From NCBI GenBank assembly GCA_963575745.1, contig CAUYUJ010000039.1, forward strand, positions 1-64,000: a stretch of 64,000 bases of DNA, read 5' to 3'. A program made the translations under genes and the position numbers. Source of the DNA: Prorocentrum cordatum. Taxonomy: Eukaryota. The notes below the pieces were generated by a model, which worked only from the letters and a program-made list of their open reading frames with translations, did not search any database and was not told the origin of the DNA. Positions 11,722 through 50,723 of the stretch are shown here, one piece after another (position 1 is the stretch's first letter; each line of letters opens with the position of its first letter).

Positions 11722-11752
<31 letters not shown>

Positions 11753-12291: not shown

Positions 12292-12325
<34 letters not shown>

Positions 12326-13006: not shown

Positions 13007-13042
<36 letters not shown>

Positions 13043-13116
13043 GATTTCTACTACTACTAACACTACTACTTCTACGACTACTACTACGACTACGACTACG
13101 ACTACTACTACTACTA

Positions 13117-13174
<58 letters not shown>

Positions 13175-13797
13175 CACTGCTACTACTACTACTACTGCTA
13201 CTACTACTACTACTACTACTACTACTGCTGCTACGACGACTACTACTACTACGACGACTACTACTACTACAACTTCTACTTCTACTCCTGCTTCTACTTT
13301 TTTAATTTATTTTTCCGATTCCTGCTACCCCACGTCGCTCGGCTTTGCATTGCCCCCCATGGGACGTCTTCAGTTCGTTGTCGTCGTCGTCGTTGTCTCC
13401 CCGATCGCGTCCATCTGACGAACATGGATCGGGGAGTCTGTGCTGATTTACGAAAGGACCCACCCTGGGGACCGCCGCCGCCTCTGGGAAAACCGTTCGC
13501 CTTTACCCCACCTGTGGTATTTCTTGAACCCACCCCTCGGCGGCCGCCGCCAGCTTTCTGGAAACCCGTTCCTATTTCAACCATTCGATTTTTGTGTCGA
13601 GCACACCCCCAGCCAACGTGGCGTGGGGAAGGGTAAGTTTGAGTAGTACATCTGTATATATATATAGATATATAGTCATAACACCCTTACTGGTCAGCGG
13701 AGCTGGGGAAGGGTCTTAACATGTCCCCTCGTGGGGTTGAGTTTGTTATTTGACCCCTGTTTCAGAGCCCAGACTTGCCGGGAAAATAGGGGCAACT
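9790..13797 (-). repeat. Left inverted arm: degenerate (ACT)n tract plus ~0.5 kb unique segment
   Basis: 13280-13797 is the reverse complement of 30763-31290. Satellite interruptions are shared (e.g. 12470-12500 vs 32341-32372; 10975-11045 vs 33781-33857). Outer end approximate. Confidence 0.88.
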
Positions 13798-16396: not shown

Positions 16397-18454
16397 TTAG
16401 CCTGGCGAAGGACCCAACCATATGCAGTTGAGAGTACCGCAATTGTGAATATCTTCTTCGGTGGCGCTCCCTATGGGGCCACGAGCCGTATGAGGGGTGT
16501 GCCGAAATGCGTGGCAGTGTACACAACACGAACGAAGACGATAGGTCCGAATATGAAAGCTTGAGCGCGTGCGAGTCGGATCGCGAGCGAGTCTGATTAT
16601 GAATGAATCTGCGCGCGATTGATTCTATTCGCATGAATGCGTGCATGGATACGCCCAGTGTAAATGTATGTATACGACTGTGAACAGTTTGGGTCTGCGT
16701 GACTCTCGGTACTCGTGACTCTGAGCGTCGCCTCTGCAGGGGGCTTCCCTGGGAACCCCGACGGCAGCGCCCGCGCGCCGCGACGCCCATGTCGGCACGC
16801 CACACACCTGGTGTGCGGGACGCATGCGGACGGCAGCACTGGGGCCTTCGGTGGAGCTCCCTGTGGGGCCACGAAACGTGTGAGGGGTGTGCCGAAATGG
16901 GTGTGCGGGACGCATGCGGACGGCAGCCATGGGGCCTTCGGTGGAGCTCCCTATGGGGCCACGAAACGTGTGAGGGGTGTGCCGAAATGGGTGTGCGGGA
17001 CGCATGCGGACGGCAGCACTGGGGCCTTCGGTGGAGCTCCCTGTGGGGCCACGAAACGTGTGAGGGGTGTGCCGAAATGGGTGTGCGGGACGCATGCGGA
17101 CGGCAGCCATGGGGCCTTCGGTGGAGCTCCCTATGGGGCCACGAAACGTGTGAGGGGTGTGCCGAAATGGGTGTGCGGGACGCATGCGGACGGCAGCACT
17201 GGGGCCTTCGGTGGAGCTCCCTGTGGGGCCACGAAACGTGTGAGGGGTGTGCCGAAATGGGTGTGCGGGACGCATGCGGACGGCAGCCATGGGGCCTTCG
17301 GTGGAGCTCCCTATGGGGCCACGAAGCGTGTGATGGGTGTGCCGGAATGGGTGTGCGGGACGCATGCGGACGGCAGCACTGGGGCCTTCGGTGGAGCTCC
17401 CTATGGGGCCACGAAACGTGTGAGGGGTGTGCCGAAATGGGTGTGCGGGACGCATGCGGACGGCAGCCACTGGGGCCTTCGGTGGAGCTCCCTATGGGGC
17501 CACGAAACGTGTGAGGGGTGTGCCGAAATGGGTGTGCGGGACGCATGCGGACGGCAGCACTGGGGCCTTCGGTGGAGCTCCCTATGGGGCCACGAAACGT
17601 GTGAGGGGTGTGCCGAAATGGGTGTGCGGGGACGCATGCGGACGGCAGCCATGGGGCCTTCGGTGGAGCTCCCTATGGGGCCACGAAACGTGTGAGGGGT
17701 GTGCCGAAATGGGTGTGCGGGACGCATGCGGACGGCAGCACTGGGGCCTTCGGTGGAGCTCCCTGTGGGGCCTCGAAACGTGTGAGGGGTGTGCCGAAAT
17801 GGGTGTGCGGGACGCATGCGGACGGCAGCACTGGGGCCTTCGGTGGAGCTCCCTGTGGGGCCACGAAACGTGTGAGGGGTGTGCCGAAATGTGTGTGCGG
17901 GACGCATGCGGACGGCAGCCATGGGGCCTTCGGTGGAGCTCCCTGTGGGGCCACGAAACGTGTGAGGTGTGCCGAAATGGGTGCGCGGGACGCATGCGGG
18001 CGGCAGCCATGGGGCCTTCGGTGGAGCTCCCTATGGGGCCACGAACGTGTGAGGTGTTGTGCCGAAATGGTTGGTGGTGCGGGACGCATGCGGACGGCAG
18101 CACTGGGGCCTTCGGTGGAGCTCCCTGTGGGGCCACGAAACGTGTGAGGGGTGTGCCGAAATGGGTGTGCGGGACGCATGCGGACGGCAGCCATTGGGCC
18201 TTCGGTGGAGCTCCCTATGGGGCCACGAAACGTGTGAGGGGTGTGCCGAAATGGGTGTGCGGGACGCATGCGGACGGCAGCCATGGAGCCTTCGGTGGAG
18301 CTCCCTATGGGGCCACGAAACGTGTGAGGGGTGTGCCGAAATGGGTGTGGAGGAGGGAGGAGGGCGGAGGAGGAGAGGAGGAGGAGGAGAGGAGGTGGGA
18401 CGCGGGGCGCTGTCTCTTCAAAACGAGGACCCAACACCACAGGATGGTTGGGAA
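16397..18454 (+). mobile_element. 90-bp-satellite element, copy B (in the A-tract of retrogene 1)
   Basis: Same termini; 90-bp array ~16811-18350; absent at the equivalent site in units 3 and 4. Confidence 0.85.
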
Positions 18455-19902: not shown

Positions 19903-19924
19903 TCCGTAGCCATTTTGGCTCAAG
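19903..19924 (+). other. Genomic DinoSL copy
   Basis: Exact 22-mer upstream of gene copy 2. Confidence 0.97.
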
Positions 19925-19993
19925 ATACAAGCATCCCTACAAATTACACAAGCCCTTTGGAGTGAGCTGTTTTTTGTTCACGCCTCCCCAGAC

Positions 19994-21037
19994 ATGGGTG
20001 TGATGCCGTCCGCCGTGTTTTCTGTGTCTTTTCTGTTGTCCACAGGGGGTTGCTGCGCAACTGAGCTGAAGACCTACATGGCCCGGACGGACGGGTGGGT
20101 CATTGATTCGGCAAACGCACGCTCCTGCACTGCGATATGCAGCGAGGTCGGCAAGACGTGCACAGCTGCGAGCGAGACGATCATGACTAACGCCGCTGCG
20201 TCGGCAAGTGCCCTCAAGACCGCCCTCGGCAGCCAGTTCTCCACATTCTGCCCAGGTGGTGTCCAGGACACGAATCCCAGTGACGACGTGCCCTTTCTGT
20301 TTGCCCCGGGCAACTTCTGCGAGTACGGCCGCGGGAGCTACAGATCGAGGTGCGAGACTGCAGGTGAAAATTGGAAGGTGCGGCGGATCTGCTACTGCCA
20401 GGCGACGCCGGCGCCTTCGCCAGCGCCGACGCCCGCACCATCGGCTTCGCCAACGCCCGCACCATCGGCTTCGCCAACGCCAGCACCGACGCCCGCGACC
20501 CCCTCACCGACGCCTGCACCTACGCAGGCGCCGACGCCTGCCCCTACGCCAGCCCGTACGCCTGCAGCGATTGCTGCTGCAGTCGGGGATCCTCACCTGG
20601 TAAATATACACGGGGAGCGTTTTGATCTCCTCAAAGATGGCAGGCACTTGCTGGTCGAGGTCCCACAGTTTGCAGCGGAGAGCGCGACGCTCCTGGCCGT
20701 CGCGGCCGTGGCACAGCGTTGTGGCGACGCATGCTCGGACGTTTACTTTGTATCCATTAATGTGACCGGTAAGTGGGCGGACGACGTGCGCGAGGGCGGC
20801 TTCCATTACACGGCCAAGCAGCCGCAGGCCCATCGAAAGGGAACGGGCTGGATGAGCTTCCACAGCATTAAATTGAAGACCGTATGGGGCCGTACTGGCG
20901 GAGGCATTCCCTACCTGAATATGTTTGTCAAGAACTTGGGCAAGTCGGGGTATCCAGTCGGTGGTTTGCTCGGCGGTGGGGACCATTCCTCCGTCACCAA
21001 TCCCGATTTGCGCTGCAAGCGCTACCTCGCATTTTAA
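19994..21037 (+). CDS. Retrogene copy 2: 347-aa secreted protein (signal peptide, 8-Cys domain, Pro/Thr/Ala linker, GDPH VWD-like C-terminal domain)
   Basis: Intact intronless ORF with hydrophobic N-terminus, SCxxxCxxxGxxC...RRICYC, (PAPSPAPT)-type repeats and AVGDPHLVNIHGERFDL. SL lies 70 nt upstream. Confidence 0.9.
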   Translation: MGVMPSAVFSVSFLLSTGGCCATELKTYMARTDGWVIDSANARSCTAICSEVGKTCTAASETIMTNAAASASALKTALGSQFSTFCPGGVQDTNPSDDVPFLFAPGNFCEYGRGSYRSRCETAGENWKVRRICYCQATPAPSPAPTPAPSASPTPAPSASPTPAPTPATPSPTPAPTQAPTPAPTPARTPAAIAAAVGDPHLVNIHGERFDLLKDGRHLLVEVPQFAAESATLLAVAAVAQRCGDACSDVYFVSINVTGKWADDVREGGFHYTAKQPQAHRKGTGWMSFHSIKLKTVWGRTGGGIPYLNMFVKNLGKSGYPVGGLLGGGDHSSVTNPDLRCKRYLAF

Positions 21038-21421: not shown

Positions 21422-23679
21422 TTAGCCTGGCGAAGGACCCAACCATATGCAGTTGAGAGTACCGCAATTGTGAATATCTTCTTCGGTGGCGCTCCCTATG
21501 GGGCCACGAGCCGTATGAGGGGTGTGCCGAAATGCGTGGCAGTGTACACAACACGAACGAAGACGATAGGTCCGAATATGAAAGCTTGAGCGCGTGCGAG
21601 CCGGATCGCGAGCGAGTCTGATTATGAATGAATCTGCGCGCGATTGATTCTATTCGCATGAATGCGTGCATGGATACGCCCAGTGTAAATGTATGTATAC
21701 GACTGTGAACAGTTTGGGTCTGCATGACTCTCGGTACTCGTGACTCTGAACGTCGCCTCTGCAGGGGGCTTCCCTGGGAACCCCGACGGCAGCGCCCGCG
21801 CGCCGCGACGCCCATGTCGGCACGCCACACACCTGGTGTGCGGGACGCATGCGGACGGCAGCACTGGGGCCTTCGGTGGAGCTCCCTGTGGGGCCACGAA
21901 ACGTGGGAGGGGTGTGCCGAAATGGGTGTGCGGGACGCATGCGGACGGCAGCACTGGGGCCTTCGGTGGAGCTCCCTGTGGGGCCACGAAACGTGTGAGG
22001 GGTGTGCCGAAATGGGTGTGCGGGACGCATGCGGACGGCAGCACTGGGGCCTTCGGTGGAGCTCCCTGGGGGGCCACGAAACGGGTGAGGGGTGTGCCGA
22101 AATGGGTGTGCGGGACGCATGCGGACGGCAGCACTGGGGCCTTCGGTGGAGCTCCCTGTGGGGCCACGAAGCGTGTGAGGGGTGTGCCGAAATTGGTGTG
22201 CGGGGCGCATGCGGACGGCAGCGCTGGGGCCTTCGGTGGAGCTCCCTGTGGGGCCACGAAACGTGTGAGGGGTGTGCCGAAATGGGTGTGCGGGACGCAT
22301 GCGGACGGCAGCCCTGGGGCCTTCGGTGGAGCTCCCTATGGGGCCGCGAAACGTGTGAGGGGTGTGCCGAAATGGGTGTGCGGGACGCATGCGGACGGCA
22401 GCATTGGGGCCTTCGGTGGAGCTCCCTGTGGGGCCACGAAACGTGTGAGGGGTGTGCCGAAATGGGTGTGCGGGACGCATGGGGGGGGGGGGGACACGTA
22501 CGGCAGCACTGGGGCCTCGGTGGAGCTCCCTATGGGCCACCGAAACGTGTGAGGGGTGTGCCGAAAGGGGTGTGCGAGGGACGCATGCGGTCGGCAGCAC
22601 GGGGCCGTGGGTGGAGCTCCCTGTGGGTCCACGAAGACGTGTGGAGGGGTGTGACGAACATGGACTGCGAATGATCAGGGTGGTATGCGGACGGCAGCAA
22701 CTGGGGCCTTCGGTGGAGCTCCCTGTGGGGCACGGAAACGCTGGAGGGAGTGCCGAAATGGGTGGTGGGGAAGCATGCGAACCCTGCCACTGGGGCCTTC
22801 GGTGGAGCTCCCTATGGGGCCACGAAACGTGTGAGGGGTGTGCCGACATGGGTGTGCGGGACGCATGCGGACGGCAGCACTGGGGCCTTCGGTGGAGCTC
22901 CCTATGGGGCCACGAAACGTGTGAGGGGTGTGCCGAAATGGGTGCGCGGGACGCATGCGGACGGCAGCACTGGGGCCTTCGCTGGAGCTCCATGTGGGGC
23001 CACGAAACGTGTGAGGGGTGTGCCGAAATGGTTGTGCGGGACGCATGCGGGCGGCAGCCATGGGGCCTTCGGTGGAGCTCCCTGTGGGGCCACGAAAACG
23101 TTGCTGAGGCGTGTGGCCGAATGGGTGCGCGGGGAGCAATGCGGGACGCAGCACGGGGGGCCATTCGGTGGAGCTCCCTATGGGGCCACGAAACGTGTGA
23201 GGGGTGTGCCGAAATGGGTGTGCGGGACGCATGCGGACGGCAGCACTGGGGCCTTCGGTGGAGCTCCTGTGGGGCCACGAAACGTGTGAGGGGTGTGCCG
23301 AAATGGGTGTGCGGGACGCATGCGGACGGCAGCCATGGGGCCTTCGGTGGAGCTCCCTATGGGGCCACGAAACGTGTGAGGGGTGTGCCGAAATGGGTGT
23401 GCGAGACGCATGCGGACGGCAGCCATGGGGCCTTCGGTGGAGCTCCCTATGGGGCCACGAAACGTGTGAGGGGTGTGCCGAAATGGGTGTGCGGGACGCA
23501 TGCGGACGGCAGCACTGGGGCCTTCGGCGGAGCTCCCTATGGGGCTACGGAGCGCTGTACTGGGCGGGTGAAACGCAAGGAAGAGGGGGAGGAGGGAGGC
23601 GGAGGAGGAGGAAGGAGGAAGGAGACGCGGGGCACCGTCTCTTCAAAACGAGGACCCAACACCACAGGATGGTTGGGAA
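21422..23679 (+). mobile_element. 90-bp-satellite element, copy C (in the A-tract of retrogene 2)
   Basis: Same termini and position as copy B, so probably co-duplicated with the unit. Confidence 0.85.
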
Positions 23680-28179: not shown

Positions 28180-28201
28180 TCCGTAGCCATTTTGGCTCAA
28201 G
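28180..28201 (+). other. Genomic DinoSL copy
   Basis: Exact 22-mer upstream of gene copy 4. Confidence 0.97.
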
Positions 28202-28270
28202 ATACAAGCATCCCTACAAATTACCCAAGCCCTTTGGAGTGAGCTGTTTTTTGTTCACGCCTCCCCAGAC

Positions 28271-29314
28271 ATGGGTGTGATGCCGTCCGCCGTGTTTTCT
28301 GTGTCTTTTCTGTTGTCCACAGGGGGTTGCTGCGCAACTGAGCTGAAGACCTACATGGCCCGGACGGACGGGTGGGTCATTGATTCGGCAAACGCACGCT
28401 CCTGCACTGCGATATGCAGCGAGGTCGGCAAGACGTGCACAGCTGCGAGCGAGACGATCATGACTGACGCCGCTGCGTCGGCAAGTGCCCTCAAGACCGC
28501 CCTCGGCAGCCAGTTCTCCACATTCTGCCCAGGTGGTGTCCAGGACACGAATCCCAGTGACGACGTGCCCTTTCTGTTTGCCCCGGGCAACTTCTGCGAG
28601 TACGGCCGCGGGAGCTACAGATCGAGGTGCGAGATTGCAGGTGAAAATTGGAAGGTGCGGCGGATCTGCTACTGCCAGGCAACGCCGGCGCCTTCGCCAG
28701 CGCCGACGCCAGCGCCTTCGCCAGCGCCGACGCCCGCACCATCGGCTTCGCCAACGCCAGCACCGACGCCCGCGACCCCCTCACCGACGCCTGCACCTAC
28801 GCAGGCGCCGACGCCTGCCCCTACGCCAGCCCGTACGCCTGCAGCGATTGCTGCTGCAGTCGGGGATCCTCACCTGGTAAATATACACGGGGAGCGTTTT
28901 GATCTCCTCAAAGATGGCAGGCACTTGCTGGTCGAGGTCCCACAGTTTGCAGCGGAGAGCGCGACGCTCCTGGCCGTCGCGGCCGTGGCACAGCGTTGTG
29001 GCGACGCATGCTCGGACGTTTACTTTGTATCCATTAATGTGACCGGCAAGTGGGCGGACGACGTGCGCGAGGGCGGCTTCCATTACACGGCCAAGCAGCC
29101 GCAGGCCCATCGAAAGGGAACGGGCTGGATGAGCTTCCACAGCATTAAATTGAAGACCGTATGGGGCCGTACTGGCGGAGGCATTCCCTACCTGAATATG
29201 TTTGTCAAGAACTTGGGCAAGTCGGGGTATCCAGTCGGTGGTTTGCTCGGCGGTGGGGACCATTCCTCCGTCACCAATCCCGATTTGCGCTGCAAGCGCT
29301 ACCTCGCATTTTAA
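28271..29314 (+). CDS. Retrogene copy 4: intact 347-aa secreted GDPH protein
   Basis: Intact ORF differing from copy 2 by a few substitutions. Confidence 0.9.
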   Translation: MGVMPSAVFSVSFLLSTGGCCATELKTYMARTDGWVIDSANARSCTAICSEVGKTCTAASETIMTDAAASASALKTALGSQFSTFCPGGVQDTNPSDDVPFLFAPGNFCEYGRGSYRSRCEIAGENWKVRRICYCQATPAPSPAPTPAPSPAPTPAPSASPTPAPTPATPSPTPAPTQAPTPAPTPARTPAAIAAAVGDPHLVNIHGERFDLLKDGRHLLVEVPQFAAESATLLAVAAVAQRCGDACSDVYFVSINVTGKWADDVREGGFHYTAKQPQAHRKGTGWMSFHSIKLKTVWGRTGGGIPYLNMFVKNLGKSGYPVGGLLGGGDHSSVTNPDLRCKRYLAF

Positions 29315-30762: not shown

Positions 30763-31284
30763 AGTTGCCCCTATTTTCCCGGCATGTCTGGGCTCTGAAA
30801 CAGGGGTCAAATAACAAACTCAACCCCACGAGGGGACATGTTAAGACCCTTCCCCAGCTCCGCTGACCAGTAAGGGTGTTATGACTATATGTCTAGACAT
30901 AGATTTATATAGATACAGATGTACTACTCAAACTTACCCTTCCCCACGCCACGTTGGCTGGGGGTGTGCTCGACACAAAAATCGAATGGTTGAAATAGGA
31001 ACGGGTTTCCAGAAAGCTGGCGGCGGCCGCCGAGGGGTGGGTTCAAGAAATACCACAGGTGGGGTAAAGGCGAACGGCTTTCCCAGAGGTGGCGGCGGTC
31101 CCCAGGGTGGGTCCTTTCGTAAATCAGCACAGACTCCCCGATCCATGTTCGTCAGATGGACGCGATCGGGGAGACAACGACGACGACGACAACGAACTGA
31201 AGACGTCCCATGGGGGGCAATGCAAAGCCGGGCGACGTGGGGTAGTAGTAATCGGAAAAATGAATAAACATAGTCGAAGCAGGA

Positions 31285-31324
<40 letters not shown>

Positions 31325-31365
31325 CAGTAGCAGTAGTAGTAGTAGCAGTAGCAGTAGTAGTAGAC

Positions 31366-31421
<56 letters not shown>

Positions 31422-31428
31422 CGTAGTC

Positions 31429-31482
<54 letters not shown>

Positions 31483-31598
31483 CAGCAGCAGTAGTAGTTG
31501 TAGTAGTAGTAGTAGTAGTACTAGTAGTATAGTAATAGTAGTAGTAGTCGTAGTAGTAGTAGTCGTATCGTAGTAGCAGTAGTAATCGTAGTAGTAGT

Positions 31599-31652
<54 letters not shown>

Positions 31653-31673
31653 AGGTAGTTAGTAGTCGTAGTC

Positions 31674-31714
<41 letters not shown>

Positions 31715-31795
31715 TAGTAGTAGCAGTAGTAATAGTTAGTAGTTAGTAATAGTAGTATAATAGTAGTAATAGTAGTAGTAGTAGTCGTAGTAGTC

Positions 31796-31830
<35 letters not shown>

Positions 31831-31842
31831 CTAGTAGTTAGT

Positions 31843-31875
<33 letters not shown>

Positions 31876-32454
31876 AGTAGTAGTAGTAGTAGTAGTAGTT
31901 AGTAGTAGTAGTCGTGTAGTAGTCGTCGTAGTAGTAGTCGTGATAGTAGTCGCAGTAGTAGTAGTAGTAGTAGCAGTAGTAGTAGTAGTAGTAGCAGTGG
32001 TAGTAGTAGTGGTAGTAGTAGTATTACTACTACTACTACTAATAGTAGACGTGTACTAGAAGTAGAAACTGTAGCAGTAGTGGTCGTAGTAATAGTAGTA
32101 GTAGTAGTAGTGGTAGTAGGAGTAGTACTGAAGTTAGCAGTCGCAGTCGCCGTAGAACTGCTAGCAGTACTAGTAGGACAACTAATCGTGATAAAGCAGC
32201 AGCAGCAATAGTGATGGTCGTAGTAATCGTAGCAGTCGTAAGAGCAACAGTAGTAGCAGTAGCAGCTGCAGCAGCAGTAGTAATACGAACCATACGTCAG
32301 TAGTAGTAGTAGTAGTAGTAGCAGCAGTCGTAGTAGTAGTAGTAACAGTGATGGAAAAGCAGAAGAAGGAGCAGTAGTAGCACTCGTAGTAGTAGTAGTA
32401 GTAGCAGTAGTAGTCGTAGTACTAGTACTAGTAGTAGTAGTAGTAGTAGTAGTC

Positions 32455-32489
<35 letters not shown>

Positions 32490-32526
32490 CGTAGTAGTAG
32501 TAGTAGTAGTAGTAGCAGTAGTAGTC

Positions 32527-32566
<40 letters not shown>

Positions 32567-32971
32567 CAGTAGTAGTAGTAGTAGTAGTAATAGTTAGTAG
32601 TAGTAGTAGTAGTAGTAGTAGTAGCAGTAGTAGTAGTAGTAGTAGTCGTAGTCGTAGTAGTGGTAGTAGTACTGGTAGTAGTGGTAGCAGCAGTAGCAGT
32701 AGTAACAGTAGTAATAGTAGTAGCGGTCGTCGTAGAACTAGTAATGGTAGCAGTGCTAGTAATAGTAGTAGTCGTAGTAGTTGTAGTGGTGACATTCGTA
32801 GTCGTAGCCGTCGTCGTAGTAGTAGTAGTAGTCGTAGAATTAGAAATAGTAGTAGTAGTAGTAGTAGTACTAGTCATAATAGTAGTAGTAGTAGTAGTCG
32901 TAGTGGTAGTAGTAGTAGTAATAATAGTAGTAGTAATAGTAGTAGTAGTAGTAGTGGTAGTAGTAGTAGTC

Positions 32972-33037
<66 letters not shown>

Positions 33038-33544
33038 GAGTAGGAGTAGTAGTAGTAGTAGTAGTCGTAGTAGTAGTGGTAGTAGTAGTCGTGGCAGCAG
33101 TACTGCTAACCATCGTAGCAGTAATCGTAGTAGTAGTCATAGTAGTAGTAATAGTTGTAGTAGTAATAGTAGTGCGAACACTCGCAGTAGCTGTAATTGA
33201 AATAGTAGTAGTAGTAGTTGTTGTAGTAGTAGCAGTAGTAGTAGTCGTAGTAGTTGCAATCGTAGTAGTAGAAATATTCATGGCAATAGTGGTAGCTTTC
33301 GTGGTAGTGATAATAATAGTCGTAGTAGTACTAGCAGTACAGTAGTAGTAGCAGTCGTATTATTATTAGTAGTAATAGCAGTGGAAGTAGTAGTAGTAGC
33401 TGTAGTAGCTGTAGTAGTAGGAGTAGTAGTAGTAGTAGTAGTAGTAGCCGCCGTCGTAGTAGCGGTAGTAGTGGTGGTGGTAGGCGTAGTCGTTAGTAGT
33501 AGTAGTAGTAGCAGTAGTAGTAGTAGTAGTAGTAGTAGGTGTAG

Positions 33545-33580
<36 letters not shown>

Positions 33581-33612
33581 ATAGTAGTAGTAGTAGTAAT
33601 GGTGGTGGTAGC

Positions 33613-33653
<41 letters not shown>

Positions 33654-33986
33654 TAGTGGTAGTAGTGGTAATAGTAGTCGGAGCACTAATAGCAGTCGTC
33701 GTGGTAGGAGTTGTAGTAGTTGTAGTAGTAGTAGTAGTAGTCGTCGGTATCCTCGTCATAGTCGTGGAATCAGTCGTAGTTTTAGAACTCGTTGTAGCAG
33801 AAGAGGTAGGATTAAACATATTAGTAACAGTAGTATTTGAAGCCGTGGTAGTATGAGTAGTAGTAATAGTAGTGGTAGTAGTAGTAGTAGTAGTAGTCTT
33901 AGGAGTAGTAGTAACAGCAGTGGTGCCAACAGTAACAATAATAGTAGCAGCAGCAGTTCTCGTCGTTGTAGTAGTCGTAGCCGTCT

Positions 33987-34043
<57 letters not shown>

Positions 34044-34055
34044 AGTAGCGTAGTG

Positions 34056-34091
<36 letters not shown>

Positions 34092-34342
34092 ATAAGAGTA
34101 GTAGTATTATAGTAGTAATCGTATAGTGTTGGTAGTAGTAGTAGTAGTAGTAGTAGTAGTCGTAGTAGTAGTAGTAGTAGTAGTGTAGTTAGTAGTAGTA
34201 TAGTAGTATAGTAAGTATAGTGTAGTAGTAGTAGTAATATATAGTGTAGTGTAGTAGTAGTAGTCGTAGTCGTAGTCGTAGTCGTAATCGTAGTTAGTCG
34301 TAGTAGTGTAGTGTAGTGGTAGTGGTAGTGTAGTTAGTAGTC

Positions 34343-34382
<40 letters not shown>

Positions 34383-34383
34383 T

Positions 34384-34458
<75 letters not shown>

Positions 34459-34525
34459 TAGTAGTAAGAGTAGGAGGAGTAGTTGTTGTAGTAGGTGGTA
34501 GTAGTAGTAGGTGTTGTAGTAGGTG
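30763..34525 (+). repeat. Right inverted arm: ~0.5 kb unique segment plus degenerate (AGT)n tract
   Basis: Starts AGTTGCCCCTATTTTCCCGG, the reverse complement of 13778-13797. Outer end approximate. Confidence 0.88.
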
Positions 34526-38098: not shown

Positions 38099-39198
38099 TT
38101 CCCAACCATCCTGTGGTGTCGGGTCTTCGTTTTGAAGAGACGTCGCCCCGCGTGCCTCCTCCTCTCCTCTCCTCCTCCCCCTCCTCCCCCCTCCCCCTCC
38201 TCCCCCCTCCCCTCACTCCTCCCTCCTCCCTGCGTTTCACCCACCCAGTACAGCGTTTCGTGGCCCCATAGGGAGCTCCACCGAAGGCGCCAGTGGCATC
38301 GTTCGAATGGCGGCCCCGCCCCATTTCGGCACACCCCTAACACGTTTCGTGGCCCCATAGGGAGCTCCACCGAAGGCCCCAGCGGCAGCGTTCGCATGGC
38401 GGCCCCGCCCCATTTTTGGTCGCCCACAATGCTTGCGCCCGTCACACGGATTTTTCGTGACTCGTCAATGGGGGCTCCACCACCGAAGAGCCCCAGGCAG
38501 GGTTCGCATGCGGCCCCGCCTCATTTTGGCGCACCCCTCACACGGTTTCGTGGCCCCATAGGGAGCTCTCAGCGAAGGCCCAGTGGCAGGGTCGCATTGC
38601 GCCACCCCTCCGCCCCGATCCTTGGCCCAACACGACCCCGCCACGTTTCGCGGCCCAGGCCATAGGGAAGTCTCCACCGAAGGCCCCCCATCGGTACCAG
38701 GGTTTCGACATGGCGGCCCGCCCCGTTGGGCGCAGCTCCCGAACACGGGTTCTGACCCCATAGGAGTAATCCACCGAAGGCCCCAGTGGCAGTGTTCGTC
38801 ATTGCGGCCAGCCGCCTCATTTTGGCGCACCCCTCACACGGTTCGTGGCCTCATAGGGAGCTCCACCGAGGGCGCCAGTGGCAGGGTTCGCATGGCGGCC
38901 CCGCCCCATTTTGGCGCACCCCTCACACGGTTCGCGGCCCCATAGGGAGCTCCACCGAAGGCCCCAGTGGCAGGGTTCGCATGGCGGCCACGCCCCGTTG
39001 TGGCGCAGCCCTCACACGGTTCGTGGCCCCATAGGGAGGTCCCCCGAAGGCCCCGGTGGCTGGGTTCGCATGGCGGCCCCGCCCCGTTGTGGCGCAGCCC
39101 TCACACGGTTCGTGGCCCCGTAGAGATTTCCTCTTGCTTCGTCCCACCTGCCCTGCGGTATTCACGTTTGCATATGGTTGGGTCCTTCGCCAGGATAA
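38099..39198 (-). mobile_element. 90-bp-satellite element, copy D (inverted) with 32-bp flanking direct repeat
   Basis: Reverse-complement termini. Flanks 38067-38098 and 39199-39230 match at 30 of 32 positions. Confidence 0.85.
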
Positions 39199-41262: not shown

Positions 41263-42254
<992 letters not shown>

Positions 42255-42423
42255 GTTTCCCCCCGAAGGCTCTGGGGAGCCTGTCCTCAAACCGCGGGGT
42301 GACAGGCAAAATTACACGGTACTATCACGAGGAGACCTAACTGTTACGGGTGACAGCCACCCTTCCTTTCTCGCGCCCTCACTGTTACGAGCACTCTTCC
42401 TTGCCCTGAAGGGACGTCCTGGG

Positions 42424-45400
42424 ATGGCGGCGGCCGCTGGCGGCGCCGCGGACGCAGGTGCAGGGGCTCGAGTGGCTGGGAGTAACGCCGCTGCGGCTCG
42501 AGGCGAAGGCGGAGTGCTGGCAGCCGCGGGAGGCAGCGGAGGTGCTGGGGCAGCCCCGTGCGCCTCCGCTGCCGCTCCCGCGTCGGCTGGCGTGAACGCA
42601 GCCGACATCCCCGTGGATGGCAACACCGACGTCCACATGCGTGACAGTGAGGGCCAGCCAGCACAGCGGCGGCGCCGCATGACGGGCGGGCGAATCACCC
42701 GTTGGTGTGTCAGCGCCCAGGCGGCTCGCGGCAAGAAGGCTCACTGCACCCGCTGCGTGGGAGGTTTTGAGGCGGGTGAGTGGCGCGTGGCAGGCGTCGT
42801 GACACCACCCGCTGGGTCCCAGGCGCACGCGGGCAGGAAGTGGTTCCACATGGCCTGCGTCGGTGGCCCCCTACCACCAGCTACGGCGATGGTGGGCTTC
42901 ACTCAGCTCCCAGAGGGCGACAGGGATCGCCTCACGGCAGCCCTGGAGGCCCGGGGAGGCCCCATCTTGCCCCTGCTGGAGACAGTCGAAGGCCAGGCCC
43001 CCACCCCTCCCAGCCAGAGAGATGGCGCGGCAGGGAGCACCGGGGCAGCCCCGAGGCTCCCTGCCGCCGCCGCGCCAGGGGCGTACGGCCCAGGCGCGCG
43101 GGGGACTCCCCTGGGGGCGGCCGAGGCAGCGGTGCCGACCACGGCGGACATCCTACAACCGCCACTCGACGCCCCTGCGGAAGCGGACGATGATGGCGGG
43201 CTCGAGACAGGCGTCTACGACGACTACCTGGACGACCAGGTGACGAGCGAGGACGCCTACCACGAGGTCGGTTTCGTCAATCTGGACTGGTGGGATGCCA
43301 TCGGGTGGGACCGCATCCTGCTCCAAGGGGCGCCCACCACAGCCATGATTCCCGACGGCATGGCGGCAGCCGTCAGCCACGTGAAGGTGCGACTGCGTTT
43401 GGCAATCGAGCAGGCACGCCAGGGTAACGATGCTCAGACGTCGAGTACGTTGACGAGGCTGTGGGAGGCGTTCCTGTCGTTGGACGGACTGCTGTTCAGC
43501 GAAAATGCCGACCCCGACGCGCGGCGTGAGCGCCTCCAGGAGCGCCTGCGGTGGATCCAGGACGGCCAGTGGGATGTTGCTTGGCTTTCCATGGAGGACC
43601 AGACGCGCACCGCGGTCACCACGAAGGGCCGCGAGGATCACGTCGCAGCCCGTGTACGCCGTGTCACCGAGCTCGCACGAGCTGGAGAGATGTCTCGGGC
43701 GGCAGCGGCAGTGTGGCCCCAGGGGGACATGGCGGACGCAGCGGCGGTGGTGAGGAAGTTCAGCACCACCCAGCAGCCTGAGGCGCCCCGCCCAGGCGAG
43801 TGGGGCCCTCTCCCTGGCACTGGGGCCGCCCCGCATGGGCCAGGGAGAGGGTCCGCAGGGGCGGGGGCCGACGTGGCGACGCCGCCAGCCGCGGCCCCCC
43901 ACGAGCTCGACGGCGCAGCAGAACTCCACCGCCGCGTGGCCAACCACCTCGAACGTCAGTTTGGCCGCTTCCCCCGCCGTGGAGGGGCGGGGCCTGGAGG
44001 AGGACGCCACGAGCACTGGGCCCCGCTCAAATACGACGAGGATGGGGCAGAGGCGGTGGCCAACACGCTGGCACGACTGGCCATCGGGGACCTCCCCCCC
44101 GAGGCGCTAGCCGCCCTGACGGCGGCGGGCCTCACAGGCATCCCCAAGGCAACCCCTGGGGATGTGCGAGTCCTGGGCTGCGGAAACGTCACCCGCCGCA
44201 TGGTGGGCCGCAGCGCTGCCAAGGTCCACCACAAAGACATGCGGACGGCGGTGGGGGACCAGCAGTTCGGCCTCGCCAAGGACGGATGTGGTGCCCTCCA
44301 TCGGCGCCTATGCACGATGGCCAACTCGAGCCCAGGCAGGTGGGTGGTGGCGGTGGACTTCGGGGATGCGTTCAGCAACATCCCCCGCGACCTGGTGAAG
44401 GAGGCCGTGCGCGCCAAAGTGCCTGCGCTGGCCCCGTTGGCGGAAGCCTGGCTCCCCGCCCGAACACGCCACGTGGCGGGTGGCGGGTCACAACCCGCCC
44501 AGCTGGTCGACCAGATCCGCGGCCTTGACCAGGGCTGCCCTATGAGTCCAGGCTTCTACGCGGTCGGCACTGCGGACGTTCTCAGCATCGGCCGCATGGC
44601 CGTGCGCGCGGTGGACACGGAAGGGGGCTGCTTGGCTTTCTTGGACGACACGTACTTCGTGGGCACCGCGGCCGCTGTGTTCCGCGGCTTGGGTGCGTGG
44701 CGAGCCCGCATCGAGGCCCACGGGATGAAGCTCAAGATGTCCAAGACCCAGATATGGTCCCCCGATCCCCGAGCTGTCCTGCCGCCCGAGTTTGCAGAGT
44801 ACGCCCAATACCGCGCCCAGAAGCTCAAGGCAGTGGGGCCCACCCTGGCCTACACGAACCACGACGTGGACACCGACTGGAGGGGCGACCCGCTCACGGA
44901 CTTCGCCGTCCCAGAGGACCTCGATGAGGGGGGCCGCGGGCAGGCTGGCGGCGCCGGGGCCGCCCCGAGCGCCGCCACGCCACCCCCCTGTGGCGCAGCC
45001 TTCCTCCAGAAGCAGGACCGCTACTTCAAGGAGCTTCTGACGCTACGCAGGCGTGGGCTCTCTGCCTTTGACGCATTCCAGTTGATGCGGATCTGGTCGA
45101 GGGGCGCCTGCGTCCACATCCAGCGGGTGCCCCCGCTCACGGCGGCGTGGAGCCGCAGGGTGGATGATGGAGTGGTCGCCTTCGTCAACGCCCTGCTCGG
45201 GGTCACGGCTGCCCCCCGAGAGCAGATTTCCATGAAGGTCAGCGACGGAGGTCTGGGCCGTGGCAGCGCTGAGCAACGCGGCCCCGCCGCCCTCCTGGCA
45301 TCCTGGGAAGCTGGGATTCACGCGGCAGCCCAGGAGCTCCGAGAGTCGACGACGATCTGCCTCTTTCGGAGGCGGCCAGGCCTTGGCCGTGCCCTCTCAG

Positions 45401-46253
45401 CAGCGGACGAGGAGCAGGGACGGCTGGCGGGCGGCCGTCGCCCTCAGAGAGACCGCTGGCAGGGCCTTCTGGAGGGGCGGAAGGGCACGGACCAGAAGAC
45501 GTACACCCAGCGCGTGCGGGATCACGTCACCAAGACGTTCATGGCTGCGCTGCCAGTGGCGGCAGCGGCGGCGGTGCACAGTGCCTCGGGCAGCTCAGCG
45601 GGCGCCTGGTTGGATAACTTCGAGGGGGTTCCGCCCCTCGCCGACCACGCGTCCTGCATTGCAGCCAAGAGGCGCAGGCACCTGCCGCTGCTGCAGTCCG
45701 AGTGCACGTGCCTGAACCGACCAGCGGCGCCCACGCGCGCGATGGCGCAGCACGGCCCGACGCGCGGCCGCACGGTGGACGTTCGAGGCGTTCATGCGCT
45801 CAACTGTCCCAGGGGAGGCGGTCCGACACGTCGCCACAATGCCATCCGAGACGCCGCGGCGCTCTGGCTGCGCGGGGTGGGCCACCGTGCCCTGCTGGAG
45901 CAGGTCATCCCAGAGTGGTGCACGGAGGAGCAAGGTGCGGCCACACTGGACGTGGTCTACCATCGAGGCATCCATGGCCGAGTTTGCCTCGACATCAGCT
46001 TGGTGGACGAGGCGGCTGTGGCCCAGACGGGGCGGCCACGCCAAGCAGCCCTGCAGCGCAGAGAGAAAGTGAAGCACCGTGGCTGCGCCGTGCCGTAGGG
46101 GAATTGCCTGAGGCCGAGCGACCCGCGGCACGTGCAGCCCTGCGCTCGGCAGTGGCCGACGCCCTGCAGGGCCAAATTGCGGAGCAGGTCGCCCTGGCGA
46201 CGGAGGGCGCAACGGGGCTGGACGCAGGGGCCGCCCCGAGTGTCCAGTCTTGA
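42424..46253 (+). pseudogene. ORF1: PARP-type zinc finger + reverse transcriptase + zinc motif/restriction-like endonuclease; C-terminus frameshifted near 46080
   Basis: CTRC...WFHMAC (42703-42861); RT motifs VDFGDAF, GLDQGCPMSP, AFLDD; CTC...HALNC...RHNAIRD...TLDV...LDISLVD. The terminal helix AVADALQGQIAEQV is in another frame ending at 46253. Confidence 0.9.
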
Positions 46254-46963
46254 CTAGCTATGGCCCCACCCCATTTGCGTGTGCTTACTGACCTTCCCCC
46301 CCCCCGCTCCCGTTCCCGCTGCCCTGGCCAGTCGTCAAAAAATAGTCACATCTGTTGTGCACGCGGTTTTGTTCAGTCCCCTTGTCGCGCGCACAGTGTG
46401 CTTCTGCATTGTCATGTTTGTTCGGCACGCCACGTTGTGTCGCCTCCCCGCTTTGTACATGTTGTGGTCTCGGCATGTCACTCTTTTGATGCTCTTAGTC
46501 TCTGGCTTGAGTTGCTACCGCAGCCCATGTGGACTGAGCCCGCATGCTACAAATAGCACCTGTTCGAGGTTGCTGGCTAAAGAGGCGTCAAGAGGCGTTG
46601 AGGATCGGGGCCGCCCCGCGGGTCCTTGGGCCGTCGGCGGCCCGCCGTCTGCTCTGTCGCCCGCCCGCGACGTGGTTTCCTCGCCCCCCTCCCCCCCTCT
46701 CCTGCCCGTCCAGGGTCCCGAACGGGGGTCAGGCCGTTTTCCACCGGCATAATCAACGGGCCCCACGCACCTGGAGCCTTTGGTTTCAGTCCTTAGTCTT
46801 CCTGTGTTATCTGTGTCCCGCCTTGGCAGTTGGCCGCCCCATTTTGGTTCGGTGTGCAGCCTCCCCCCTTCCCCTCTCTCCCCCGTCAGCTGTTTGGCTC
46901 GAGAGTACCTGTCTCGCACATTCTCTCGAGCTGCACCTCCCGTGCCATCCACCCGACCAAGTG

Positions 46964-49721
46964 ATGGCGCCCAAGTTCTCGAAGCTTGCGCCGACGCCTT
47001 GGCCCGCCAAGGCGTGCGCCGCGGGGGAGGCACCAACCTCCAAAGCAAGGCCGGCCCAGCGCCCTGTCCATCAGGTTAGCTTGTCGGAGAGCGAAGACGA
47101 GGAGTTTGACATGATGTCCGAGGCGGCGACCTTTCGGACGGCACCAACAGTGCACACGGAATCAGCGACCCCCGCTGAGGACGCTGCTGGAGGCGGCGGT
47201 ACGGGGGCCGCCCCCAGTGCCGCCGCCTCCGATAGCGCCTCGGCGATGCCTGCACCAGCGGTGACGCCAGTGACGTCGGCCGCCCTGGCAGCGGCAGCCA
47301 CGTATGCTGACTTCACCACGGAGCAGCGCCGTGGCCTGGATGCGCTCACCCTCGCGCTCCACAACTTTCAGCTGAGGGGGCATGCTGCGGGTGGCCGTGG
47401 CGGCCGCGGGGCGCGCAACGCTGCTGACGGTGAGCGCGCCGTGGACGACGGGACCGCCAGCGAAGCCCCGAGTGCGGCGACCACGGGTGCCCTCAGCGGC
47501 CATGGGGGCAAACGCCACCGCCGACGCAGCAACGACGCCGTCTACGGCCAGGCCCCCCAGTCGAGCGACGGCGCACCAGCCGCGCTTGAAGACGTAGAGA
47601 TGATGACGGAGGAGGACTACGCTGAGGCGGGCTACGCCCACTGCATGGGCGCATACTGGGCCCCGCCGCACCGCCTGGGCTGGCGTCGGAGGTGCACGGC
47701 ACTGGACGACTGGAAGATCATGGCGGTGGAGCACGTGGACGAGCTCAGCTGCGCGGAGATGCGCCGCTATGCGGAGGCCAAGGCACACAGCGATAAATAC
47801 CCCGATCGGAGGAGGGGCAAAGAGGGGCAGTACAAGCTCTACATGTGCTCGAGCTGTGTGGCGACGACGGAGGGCATCTCCGAGCGCGATGCCGCGACGC
47901 GCGCTGCGCGCGCGAATAAGGGCCCAGGCTCCATTGACCATGCCGCCAAGCGGGCGCGAAGTTCCGTGCGAGTTTCGATTACATCAAGGAGGGCATGGAC
48001 GTGCTGGTGGGTTTCGCGCTCTCAGAGGTGGGCTTGCTTGCCTTGCGGAGGTCAACGGGGGGCGTGGGGGCGGGCGTCGACCCCGAGAGTACGGGCGCCC
48101 CCCCCAGCCACGGAAGAAGTGGCGAGGGAGGTGGGCCGCCCGATGGCGAGGGAGGCGGGGGTGGTGCCAGGGCCGCCCCGTGCGCCACCCCCGCCCCTCG
48201 AGGAAGAGCCCCCCAGTGATGAGGAGAACGACCCTCAGCCCGACGCGGACGCGGAGGACTAGGGGCTCCAGCTGACCGAGGTCCAGACCGTGAAGGAGGT
48301 CACGGACATCGAGCCCTTGCTGCGGCTCGGCCTATCCAAGAAGTCGCTGAAGCGCATGGCGCGGGCCGATGGCGTCCTCGAAATCGAGACCACGCGCGCC
48401 CGCATGCTGGGCGGCCTGGGGCCCATCCTGGAAAAGAAGGAGGACATGGTGAGGGGCACCGAGGCGCAGGACGGAGTCCAGAAGTGGCTCGACGCGCTGA
48501 ACGAGGAGGCGGAGGTGGATGTGGGGAGGCTGAAGAGGGGTCTCCTGGAAGCCTCGGGGATCGCAGATGCCCACCTGGGACACAAACGCGCATGGAAAGA
48601 GGAGTGCCAGGGCAACACCTCGGCGCAGGAGGCCTACCGCCGCATGGGCGACTACACGGACCAGTTCTACCGTGACAAGGGCTTCACGTTCAACATGTAC
48701 TACAAGTGCGCGGCCAACAAGACCTGGGATACTCCCAGGGGGTGCTGTTCGGTGATCCGATCGGATCGCTGGTCACAGCTGCTCTCATGCGCCCAGGAGG
48801 CAGCGGGAGAGACGGGCCAGCGCTGGTACTGCCACTGCGGGGCGCGCTACTCGACTTCCTACGGAGTCTGCATCGAGTTCATTGAGGAGGAGGCGGTCCC
48901 GCCACACGCGTACTACATGCACGCGGAGCATCCCGAGGAGGACATCCGCGACTTGAAGGCCCTGCTGCGCTACGACAAGCTCAAGAAGGAGGGGGTCGCA
49001 GTGATCAACGCGGTGGACCTCCTGAAGTACCTGCCCAAGGTTGAGCCGCTGGCGGTTGGCACCGTCTTCAAGCGCCATGCTCCACACCGGGCGCAGTGGG
49101 AGGGCCACTATGTGCTGATGGAGGGGCTCACCTGGGAGAGCTTGCCCACGTTCGAGTGGACCGACCTCTACGCGCAGGTCGCCTGGGGACTGAACGACCC
49201 AGAATGGGCGGGCTACAGCAAGAAGGCGCGGAACAAAGCCAAGAGGGAGCGCCTGGAGATGGCGCACAGGGAGTTGGCGCTCTACGAGCGCCGCCACAAC
49301 CTGAAGGCGGGCAGCCTCTCGGGCGGCGGGGGCGGCGCATGGGGCCGCCCCGCGCGCCACCCCCGTGCGCAACGCCAGCGCCCCACCAGCGGGCGGGGCC
49401 CGCGGCGGCCAGGACCCGCCACCGCCGCCAGCGGGGGTCCCGCCAGAGGCTGCGGCCATCATGGGCCCACCGCCGCCGCCGCCGACGGCGCCCCCTGATG
49501 CGCCGCCGCCGCCGACGCACCCGCCACCGCAGACGGGCCCGCTCCCGCAGCAGACCCCAAGCGCTGCAGCCCTGAACGTGGCCCTCGGCGCAGACCTTGA
49601 GCGCCAGATCTTTGGGCCCTCAGGGCAGGCGGGGGGCAGCGGCGACCTCGGCGGGGAGGCGCGGGCGCTGCCGTCGCAGGTCTTTGCTGCCATCGCGCAG
49701 GGAGCAGGCCAGCAGGCCTGA
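46964..49721 (+). pseudogene. ORF2: disrupted ~900-codon protein of unknown function with Cys/His motifs and Pro-rich tail
   Basis: ORFs 46544-48262 and 48290-49498 share a frame and are separated by a single TAG. Probable start MAPK at 46964. Motifs MCSSC and YYKC...GCC...RWYCHCGARY. Likely frameshifts at ~47960-48190 and ~49350. Confidence 0.7.
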
Positions 49722-50357
49722 GCGATAACGCCCAGCAGATTCCAGGGCCTCGGCAGGCCACGTGAGTCCATGCCAAGTTGTCTAACTGGCCACGTTCTGT
49801 AGTGCGGTGTGCCCACAGCCGCACCCCCCCGCGCGTTGTTGCACCCGTGGCTTTCGCCCCGGCTGGGCGCATGACTACCTGTGCGCCCAGCCACCTTGGC
49901 TCGCCAGCAGGCTTGCCATATCGGCCTCCTCACGTTCACTTGCGTTCGTTGGCCCCGCTGGCGGTGCTGGGGCAGCCCCGTGTACTGCAGCGTCGCCGTC
50001 GGGCGCCTGGCCATTTTGGCCTGCCATATTGGCTTCCTTTCGCGCCTTCTTGCGCTTGTAGGCCATAATGGCGGTACTGGGGTCGCCCCGTGTGCTGCTA
50101 CGCCGCCGCCAGCGCCTGACTTTTTGCTGTAGGGACCAGCTGCCCTCGGCCTGGCGCCTGCTGCTGCATGCACGTCAGACCCGCCCTCGGCTTGCCATCC
50201 TGGCCGCGCCTCGCGTCTTCTCGCGCTAGTCGGCCTGGGTGGCGGTACTGGGGTCGCCCCGTGTGCTGCTGTGCCGTTTCTGGCGCTTCACTTTGGGCTG
50301 TTGGTCCAACTGCCCACTGTACAAGCGCCTGACGATGCAAGCATGTCAGGTCCGCCC

Positions 50358-50623
<266 letters not shown>

Positions 50624-50723
50624 NNNNNNNNNNNNNNNNNNNNNNNNNNNNNNNNNNNNNNNNNNNNNNNNNNNNNNNNNNNNNNNNNNNNNNNNNNNNN
50701 NNNNNNNNNNNNNNNNNNNNNNN
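50624..50723. other. Assembly gap (100 N)
   Basis: Run of N; true size unknown. Confidence 1.

Follow-up and report, generated by a model that had tools for sequence, protein, structure and literature searches.

Target-primed reverse transcription (TPRT) is mainly modelled on long interspersed nuclear elements (LINEs) with a restriction-like endonuclease (RLE), R2 among them, and these are also under development as tools for gene insertion. The CRE-clade elements carry C2H2 zinc fingers and have spliced-leader (or telomere) targets, and two of them, SLACS and CZAR, have two open reading frames (ORFs), the extra one lying upstream of the reverse transcriptase (RT) ORF. Dong is an RLE LINE specific for (TAA)n. 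Here we describe an element from Prorocentrum cordatum, contained in a stretch of 64,000 nucleotides (nt) analysed over its whole length (contig CAUYUJ010000039.1 of assembly GCA_963575745.1, positions 1 to 64,000 of the forward strand; hereafter the window). By its architecture and motifs this element is of a known kind, an RLE-type, repeat-specific LINE, and it is set apart by four features: a zinc finger of the PARP/DNA-ligase-III (Lig3) type, a large conserved ORF that follows the RT, (AGT)n as target, and a scattered hairpin. The CRE, R2, R4, NeSL and HERO elements are mostly target-specific, microsatellites included, according to an excerpt of PMC4640811.

Positions 42255-50357 of the window (+ strand) are a single 8.1-kb copy of a retrotransposon of the non-LTR (long terminal repeat) class, exactly bounded by (GTA/AGT)n tracts. 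The G+C content of this segment is 0.66-0.69, compared to 0.50 in the flanking 2-kb bins, and a repeat scan of the element found no LTR or terminal inverted repeat. We consider it likely that this is a degraded copy of a multi-copy RLE-type LINE that inserts into (AGT)n and encodes a finger-RT-RLE protein (ORF1) followed by a downstream ORF2. A first-pass annotation made from the letters alone had described an 8.1-kb stretch lying between (AGT)n tracts, an ORF1 with an RT (FLDD) and a restriction-like endonuclease, and a second Cys/His-containing ORF of about 900 codons on the same strand. This outline held in the present analysis: the tracts adjoin the element on both sides, RVT_1 exceeded its Pfam cut-off, the second ORF is real and conserved (about 918 codons, 217 clusters), and the putative endonuclease was assigned by its motif set, in a domain shortened by a deletion and frameshift in this copy. 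The finger's profile match to PARP1 (E 1.1e-10), the 217 ORF2b clusters (E<=1e-3) and the recurrence of the flanks in relatives all go beyond what chance would give. The parts of the element and its flanks, in window coordinates and with protein positions in amino acids (aa), are as follows.

41263-42253, no strand: upstream (GTA)n = (AGT)n microsatellite, the 5' flank and target (TRF; degenerate, 75% matches)
42254-42423, + strand: 5' untranslated region (5'UTR), with blocks conserved in the related loci L001 and L002 (alignment): CTCTGGGGAG, CTCAAACCGCGGG.GACAG and CCTGAAGGG..GTCC
42424-46253, + strand: ORF1, the finger-RT-RLE protein; open over 42424-46098 (1224 aa), with its tail in another frame to 46253
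42724-42933, + strand: PARP/DNA-ligase-III-type zinc finger, ORF1 aa 101-170, with C108, C111, H142 and C145 (Pfam, profile and model)
44140-44760, + strand: RT domain with FLDD, ORF1 aa 573-779 (Pfam RVT_1, 6e-12)
45709-46253, + strand: CCHC and RLE motifs (RRHN, D, D, K..Y, GRW), assigned from alignments and the R2 motif list in an excerpt of PMC4838377
46254-46963, + strand: spacer between ORF1 and ORF2, without (AGT)n and with a 49-nt block in common with locus L002
46964-49721, + strand: ORF2, about 918 codons (ATG at 46964, stop at 49719-49721), with a TAG and a 1-nt frameshift read through
47639-47914, + strand: Cys-rich module of ORF2, aa 226-317, common to the relatives P0036 and P0051 and weakly to the wider family
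48563-49240, + strand: ORF2 core domain, 226 aa, with invariant C49, C61, C90 and G101, nearly invariant C92, and a confident predicted fold
49722-50357, + strand: 3'UTR, with a 171-nt direct repeat and three hairpin copies, ending directly on (AGT)n without poly(A)
50358-50623, no strand: downstream (AGT)n, the 3' flank (TRF; 93% matches), running into an N gap at 50624-50723 (100 N)

An intact element would measure about 8.1 kb. From its 5' end it would comprise a conserved 5'UTR, ORF1 with about 1280 aa, a spacer of some 0.7 kb, ORF2 with about 918 aa, and a 3'UTR ending on (AGT)n. Within ORF1, the predicted order is PARP/Lig3-type finger, conserved N-terminal region, RT, Cys/His motif and RLE.

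Compared with the R2/RLE-type LINEs (R2, R4, NeSL/Utopia/Togen, HERO and CRE), the element has the same succession of N-terminal finger(s), RT, Cys/His motif and C-terminal RLE (assigned by motifs in the element), a similar insertion specific to a repeated sequence, and no requirement for poly(A). R2 itself provides the best solved matches of the RT, and its RH, D, D, K..KY and RG.W-like motifs stand in the same order. The element differs from this group in having a PARP/Lig3-type finger rather than C2H2 or Myb, a second ORF of 918 codons after the RT ORF, (AGT)n as target, and conserved hairpins scattered through its coding region, and in that Rfam revealed neither a ribozyme nor any other RNA family in it. 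Like the CRE clade (CRE1/2, SLACS and CZAR), to which the first-pass annotation had likened it, it is a site-specific RLE-type element of protists, but its finger is PARP-type and its target (AGT)n, where the features generally associated with CRE are C2H2 fingers and the spliced leader. The microsatellite-specific RLE LINEs (Togen with (TG)n, and some HERO) resemble it in their oriented insertion into a simple repeat and in a 3' end joined to repeat units, as far as an excerpt of PMC4640811 describes them; the repeat unit, N-terminal finger, 3' ORF and hairpins are different.

The annotation had also proposed that the element represents an (AGT)n-targeting lineage, which can be judged from the flanks of other copies. 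A single metagenome scan gave four loci of relatives, L001 to L004. L002 (69% identity) starts with 95 nt of (TAG)n and continues into the element's 5'UTR, L001 (52% identity) starts with 64 nt of (GTA)n, and L003 (55% ORF1 identity, of L001's lineage) passes from its 3'UTR into (AGT)5 and then (AGTCGT)n. L004 is internal sequence with no element end visible. With both ends of the window copy included, (AGT)n adjoins all five visible element ends (two in the window, plus a 5' end each in L001 and L002 and a 3' end in L003), in one orientation throughout and in three lineages, in agreement with the proposal. At the 5' side the tract is present in three lineages, with 64 to 991 nt visible, and no AGT/ACT run of at least three units was found within any of the five element sequences (window and L001-L004). 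The 5' junctions vary by 1-2 nt (AGT|CG, AGTAG|CG and AGTA|CC) and are followed by 5'UTR blocks conserved in the alignment of relatives, while the 3' ends lie directly on AGT. As part of the explanation given above, (AGT)n/(ACT)n microsatellite arrays are likely the insertion target of the family, which enters them in a single orientation.

The 3'UTR closes with two direct repeats (50018-50186 and 50189-50357), each of about 170 nt, 74% identical and with one hairpin apiece. Since some contigs from public sequencing runs diverge after 50185, the number of these repeat units may vary among copies. The downstream (AGT)n tract (93% matches) is much purer than the upstream one (75%), so that part of it may have arisen during or after insertion; the N gap hides its true length. 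Two further microsatellite arrays, each 3.2-3.4 kb long and about 76% pure, lie elsewhere in the window: (TAC)n at 9877-13298, in the opposite orientation, and (AGT)n at 31284-34522. No element sequence was found inside either, and they are potential unused targets.

For the RT, Pfam RVT_1 aligned to ORF1 aa 573-779 with 46.1 bits (cut-off 29.6), and the best solved matches were R2 proteins (E 2e-9). A word-based search with ORF1 aa 540-1224 returned five protein clusters, beyond which a profile search built on the ORF1 alignment yielded no further relatives; viral contigs contained no ORF1 relative. Relatives P0008, P0010 and P0013 have a 1280-aa form with 67-71% identity to the window protein, P0002 and P0021 are 1291 and 1278 aa long with 53-60% identity, and P0005 is more distant (1251 aa, 25% identity). 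Intact ORF1 relatives measure 1278-1291 aa. In the C-terminal alignment, C..C..H..H..C, RRH, two Asp, K..Y and GRW were invariant in 4/4 relatives, and the order of these motifs equals the R2 order CCHC, RH, PD, D/E, K..KY, RG.W, as set out in the excerpt of PMC4838377. The window protein shows the CCHC, RRHN, D, D and K motifs; its Y and GRW are deleted, and in its Cys/His motif the second Cys and the first His are replaced by Arg. In sequence searches the RLE region gave only a sub-threshold alignment, of CP..G..RRHN.

At the N terminus of ORF1, the putative zinc ligands C108-x2-C111-x30-H142-x2-C145 fit the C-x2-C-x(28-30)-H-x2-C pattern of zf-PARP (PF00645). These ligands are invariant in 5/5 relatives, with the spacing kept in 4/5. 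The Pfam zf-PARP profile aligned to ORF1 aa 101-170 over positions 3-83 of its 87 and was matched by 4/5 aligned N-terminal domains, all below the cut-off (best E 1.5e-5). When a profile of five finger domains was compared to PDB, it matched PARP1 F1F2 (2n8a) with E 1.1e-10 and the DNA ligase III finger (1uw0) with 5e-7, and the best 14 matches were all PARP1 or Lig3 fingers. The AlphaFold2 model of the finger gave a consistent result in Foldseek, with 3od8_F as the best match (E 2.7e-4, template-modelling score 0.63) and the best 28 among the matches listed all being PARP1 Zn1/Zn2 or Lig3. Because both the profile and the fold matches lead to PARP1 and Lig3, the family of the predicted domain is established: the N-terminal domain belongs to the PARP/DNA-ligase-III zinc fingers, and the zf-PARP motif read in the first-pass annotation is supported both by profile and by fold. 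With the PARP1 Zn1/Zn2 and Lig3 fingers it shares the C-x2-C-x30-H-x2-C arrangement, the W(F/Y)H..C motif and the G..R segment; an Arg aligned with that of the PARP1 'GQVRL'/'DSLRM' segment is invariant in all five relatives. The differences are that the element has a single finger, fused to an RT and scoring below the Pfam gathering cut-off, and that, in the profile alignment, the loop that separates the two Cys from the His-Cys pair is unlike that of PARP1. In the open-access literature (Repbase being outside its scope), we found no report of a PARP-type finger in retrotransposons, and none of a third or downstream ORF in RLE elements.

Whether ORF2 is linked to ORF1 in other copies could be followed in L003, the sole relative with more than 1 kb visible past ORF1. 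Here, ORF1 ends at 3325, a homologue of the ORF2 core lies inside the element at 5372-6124 (tblastn E 1e-34), and about 690 nt of 3'UTR lead to the repeat. The order ORF1-ORF2-3'UTR-(AGT)n is common to the window and L003, at 55% ORF1 identity, and the linkage suggested earlier for the window is thereby reproduced. L002 continues for 430 nt past its ORF1 stop without (AGT)n, and a 49-nt block of L002 recurs in the spacer of the window. A maximum-likelihood tree of 39 core domains placed the window, L003 and close relatives in a clade of 7, split from the other 32 with a support of 100/99. The presence of the hairpins in ORF1, ORF2 and 3'UTR alike is further evidence of one unit. We conclude that ORF2 is part of the element.

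In L003, a further ORF of 357 aa (3712-4785) with two Cys-rich repeats is located between ORF1 and ORF2; it is without a counterpart in the window. A weak match to a treble-clef zinc finger (E 0.0085) was the only one obtained for it.

A word-based search with the ORF2 piece ORF2b found two close proteins, and an exhaustive search extended this to 217 representative clusters at E<=1e-3, 70 of them at 1e-10 or better. ORF2a matched P0051 at 4e-37, and this 544-aa protein reads through the position of the window's TAG into ORF2b. The G+C content at third codon positions (GC3) of ORF2b was 0.886. In an alignment of 39 proteins, a core of about 200 aa contained invariant Cys49, Cys61, Cys90 and Gly101 and nearly invariant Trp70, Tyr89, Cys92, Tyr96, Glu105, Pro158, Pro162 and Trp199, and upstream of it lay a Cys-rich module and a helical stretch. 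The whole of ORF2 is laid out as a disordered N-terminus, the Cys-rich module, the helical stretch, the 200-aa Cys-containing core and a Pro-rich tail. The AlphaFold2 model of the core had a predicted local distance difference test score (pLDDT) of 91.7 and a predicted template-modelling score of 0.85. The 217 clusters, the GC3 value and the pLDDT together show that ORF2 is under selection.

No similarity to a characterized protein was found for ORF2. Pfam contained no family matching ORF2a, ORF2b, ORF2c or 26 relatives, and a TetR_C match in P0051 was sub-threshold and judged spurious. The core gave a best E of 0.72 in a profile search of PDB sequences, and its model a best E of 0.38 against PDB in Foldseek, a best Z of 3.5 in VIA-align (0/48,161 chains at Z>=5) and a best E of 0.056 against the BFVD viral models. 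The atlas held no usable match for ORF2b, and viral contigs no relative of ORF2. For the core, the atlas gave leads below 0.9 to a papain-like cysteine protease (0.84), which we did not adopt. No His is invariant among the 39 sequences, and no papain-like chain appeared among the core's listed Foldseek matches or the VIA-align rows with Z>=2.6. That the core, as modelled, matches nothing is no proof of a new fold. A parallel may be drawn to the LINE ORF1 proteins (L1 ORF1p and the gag-like zinc-knuckle ORF1 of R1/TRAS/I), in that ORF2 is a second protein of the element, partly helical and partly Cys-rich, and might act as RNA-binding partner of the RT. ORF2 differs from these in being placed 3' of the RT instead of 5' and in having no sequence, Pfam or structural similarity to them; ORF1p domains (coiled coil with RNA recognition motif and C-terminal domain, CCHC knuckles, esterase) were not recognizable in ORF2 by Pfam or PDB searches.

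The window copy is damaged in both ORFs. ORF1 is broken at about 46078-46080 by a deletion of about 70 nt in the RLE together with a frameshift, with a loss of about 23 residues, and the relatives continue past its stop with ...KHRRYPFMGLVPFVIDINGRWGAEAETWLRRAVGEL.... ORF2 has a private in-frame TAG at 48260-48262 and a 1-nt frameshift at about 49340. Logan contigs from two organism runs and two metagenome runs were mapped on 42230-50380 at a likeness of at least 88%, and covered 30/30 bins in each of the four runs, with 860-3158 short contigs per run. At position 48260, every covering contig (16, 2, 2 and 1 in the four runs) had C instead of T, which gives a sense codon. Loose contig ends after 46080 encoded the missing RYPF.GLVPF in 4/4 runs, and at 49340 part of the contigs, 3, 1 and 1 in three of the runs, lacked one base. 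Since contigs are intact at the window's defects, the window holds a dead copy, and the family's members usually have both ORFs open, at about 1280 and 918 codons. The bin 46310-46581 had little contig cover in some runs, from which no conclusion was drawn, and the rise of contig depth from 5' to 3' was left unused as evidence, depth being unsuited to ranking the parts. In L002, ORF1 matches in two different frames at about 1071-1083, indicating that this copy is frameshifted too.

The motif CTGGGGCNGCCCCG, with one mismatch allowed, occurs nine times in the 64-kb window, 9/9 inside the element and on the + strand, while 0.42 occurrences were expected. Each is the apex (GGGGC-N-GCCCC) of a hairpin of about 50 nt, and 12 such segments were delimited on the + strand.

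42528-42577, + strand: GC hairpin copy 1
43023-43072, + strand: GC hairpin copy 2
43803-43854, + strand: GC hairpin copy 3
44937-44986, + strand: GC hairpin copy 4
46208-46257, + strand: GC hairpin copy 5
46590-46637, + strand: GC hairpin copy 6 (weak)
47185-47234, + strand: GC hairpin copy 7
48150-48199, + strand: GC hairpin copy 8
49321-49371, + strand: GC hairpin copy 9
49950-49999, + strand: GC hairpin copy 10
50060-50109, + strand: GC hairpin copy 11
50231-50280, + strand: GC hairpin copy 12

The hairpin fold was obtained for 11/12 segments (z -0.3 to -8.7), and for five of the 12, none of 200 shuffles folded as well. The same hairpin with a related apex is found in L001-L004. Across 18 instances, 88.9% of cells were paired, compared to 77.1% after shuffling (0/500 shuffles reaching 88.9%) and 49-54% with the partner slid; both-side changes were seen in 7/13 hairpin pairs, and G-U accounted for 33/234 cells. 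A covariance model found two instances outside its training set, at L003 5313 and L002 807; all 22 of its matches with E<=0.0022 were on the sense strand, and the 56 kb of the window outside the element gave none at E<=0.1. The hairpins are located in both ORFs, the spacer and the 3'UTR; those of the ORFs fall in variable linkers, where they encode G-x-G-[VA]-[AS]-P. The lineages have at least two positions in common, one before the RT and one between the RT and the Cys/His motif. The hairpin peptide occurs in 13/152 ORF2-like proteins. An Rfam search of the element gave nothing beyond two weak microRNA-like matches on hairpins, which at E 0.75-0.77 fall far short of the gathering cut-off; ribozymes were not among its results. 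Together, these patterns point to the hairpins being a sense-strand RNA signal.

By analogy with R2, insertion would proceed by TPRT: the endonuclease would nick the (ACT)n strand, an RNA 3' end terminating in (AGU)n or produced by read-through would pair with the nicked strand, and the RT would prime from its 3' OH. PARP1 and Lig3 fingers bind DNA breaks, from which the first-pass annotation had proposed a nick-sensing domain, and the finger could likewise hold the nicked or broken DNA end for priming, a serious candidate role to which we nevertheless give somewhat less than an even chance. LINEs commonly need a second, nucleic-acid-binding protein. For this reason, and because ORF2 has two probable zinc modules, its protein might be an accessory component of the ribonucleoprotein (RNP), a functional counterpart of LINE ORF1p that is here encoded after the RT and possibly reads the hairpins; we offer this tentatively. 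The first-pass annotation had called it a cargo or accessory gene. A more far-reaching version, which we regard as doubtful, is that of a LINE with its own RNA marking and packaging (the ORF2 protein, as a new class of element protein, reading the 11-12 hairpins) and break-coupled priming through the finger, which would catch a nicked or spontaneously broken (AGT)n end and pass it to the RT, possibly at pre-existing breaks in fragile arrays.

Several observations weigh against the interpretation of the locus as such an RLE-type LINE with its finger, ORF2 and hairpins. The window finger scored 21.2 bits as a domain and 15.6 over whole ORF1, below the Pfam gathering cut-off of 39.3, its AlphaFold2 model was only moderately confident (pLDDT 68.8), and the distant relative P0005 has a shorter Cys-His spacing. 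In searches with hidden Markov models (HMMs), the RLE region had no HMM-level match to R2 chains, PDB or Pfam, and the RLE assignment is for this reason one by motifs. The linkage of the two ORFs was seen at two loci with more than 1 kb downstream of ORF1 (window and L003), and no contig spans a whole second copy. ORF2 shows no similarity to the known LINE ORF1p proteins, to Pfam families, or to solved structures and viral models, which makes the role proposed for it conjectural. The hairpin signature is missing from the wider ORF2-like family (32/39 aligned rows), and ORF2 could have been captured. The hairpins, finally, could be self-propagating palindromes.

These points bear on four alternative explanations. 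ORF2 and the 3'UTR could be a gene captured from the host or from another element and carried along as 3' cargo, or they could form a non-autonomous unit of their own, specific for (AGT)n and in tandem with the RT unit. The ORF2-like family is large (217 clusters) compared to that of ORF1 (5 clusters), most of its aligned members (32/39) fall in a separate group, the hairpin peptide is confined to 13/152 proteins, and the spacer measures 0.7 kb in the window and holds the extra 357-aa ORF in L003. Against this stand the same gene order in two lineages at only 55% ORF1 identity, the absence of any (AGT)n trace from the inter-ORF sequence of the window, L002 and L003, the single clade formed by the ORF2 domains of the window and L003, and a lineage-specific hairpin that is present in ORF1, ORF2 and 3'UTR alike; we therefore hold this explanation to be improbable. 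An ancient capture that was later fixed in the element may have occurred, and would merge with the explanation of ORF2 as part of the LINE. Very improbable, in our view, is that the (AGT)n tracts are repeat tails added by the RT rather than a pre-existing target, with insertion taking place next to the tails of older copies. The element does end directly on AGT without poly(A), and the tract that follows it (93%) is purer than the one before it (75%) and than the two other arrays of the window (76% each). However, (AGT)n is also found at the 5' end in three lineages, with 64 to 991 nt visible, the two arrays of 3.2-3.4 kb exist in the window without element sequence, and microsatellite targeting is common among RLE-type elements in the excerpted part of PMC4640811.

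The finger might serve for something other than sensing nicks, either recognizing the (AGT)n duplex, as the zinc fingers and Myb of R2 recognize their target, or binding the element's hairpins. Target recognition is the function given to the N-terminal fingers of R2 in the excerpt of PMC4838377, the element carries many hairpins, and the loop joining its two ligand pairs departs from that of PARP1. Yet the best 14 solved sequence matches and the best 28 listed Foldseek rows all are break-binding PARP1/Lig3 fingers, and the Arg of the 'GQVRL'/'DSLRM' segment is kept in every one of the five relatives, so that we see this other use as somewhat unlikely. It is unlikely, too, that the GC hairpins are functionless, as selfish palindromes or mutational products tolerated in linkers. 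They sit in poorly conserved, low-complexity linkers and UTRs, and one copy coincides with the frameshift at about 49340; moreover, they are paralogous copies, for which reason paired changes may reflect a palindromic origin instead of selection. On the other hand, the apex and at least two positions are kept across lineages at only 52-69% ORF1 identity, strong matches are all on the sense strand, where the 33/234 G-U cells would be mismatches on the other strand, and no hairpin at E<=0.1 lies in the remaining 56 kb of the window.

If the locus is read as an RLE-type LINE with its own downstream ORF, the fusion of a finger of the break-sensor type to an RT suggests a different coupling of the cut target to priming. 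ORF2 adds an uncharacterized protein family, with 217 clusters in public data and a confident predicted fold that matches nothing, and the repeated hairpin in coding sequence and UTR provides a concrete candidate for an RNA recognition signal. Specificity for (AGT)n helps to explain how such elements persist in a repeat-rich genome.

The remainder of the window is a repeat-rich region as well. Arrays of a satellite of about 90 bp were found at 6884-8337, 16810-18349, 21835-23549 and 38480-39123, the last in the opposite orientation. Pfam searches on 12 other long ORFs of the window gave no match. Two open frames of 375 codons, at 19910-21034 and 28187-29311, contain a Pro/Thr/Ala-rich linker and have no Pfam match; they lie 8.3 kb apart, are 99% identical (371/375 residues), and are a recent segmental duplication.

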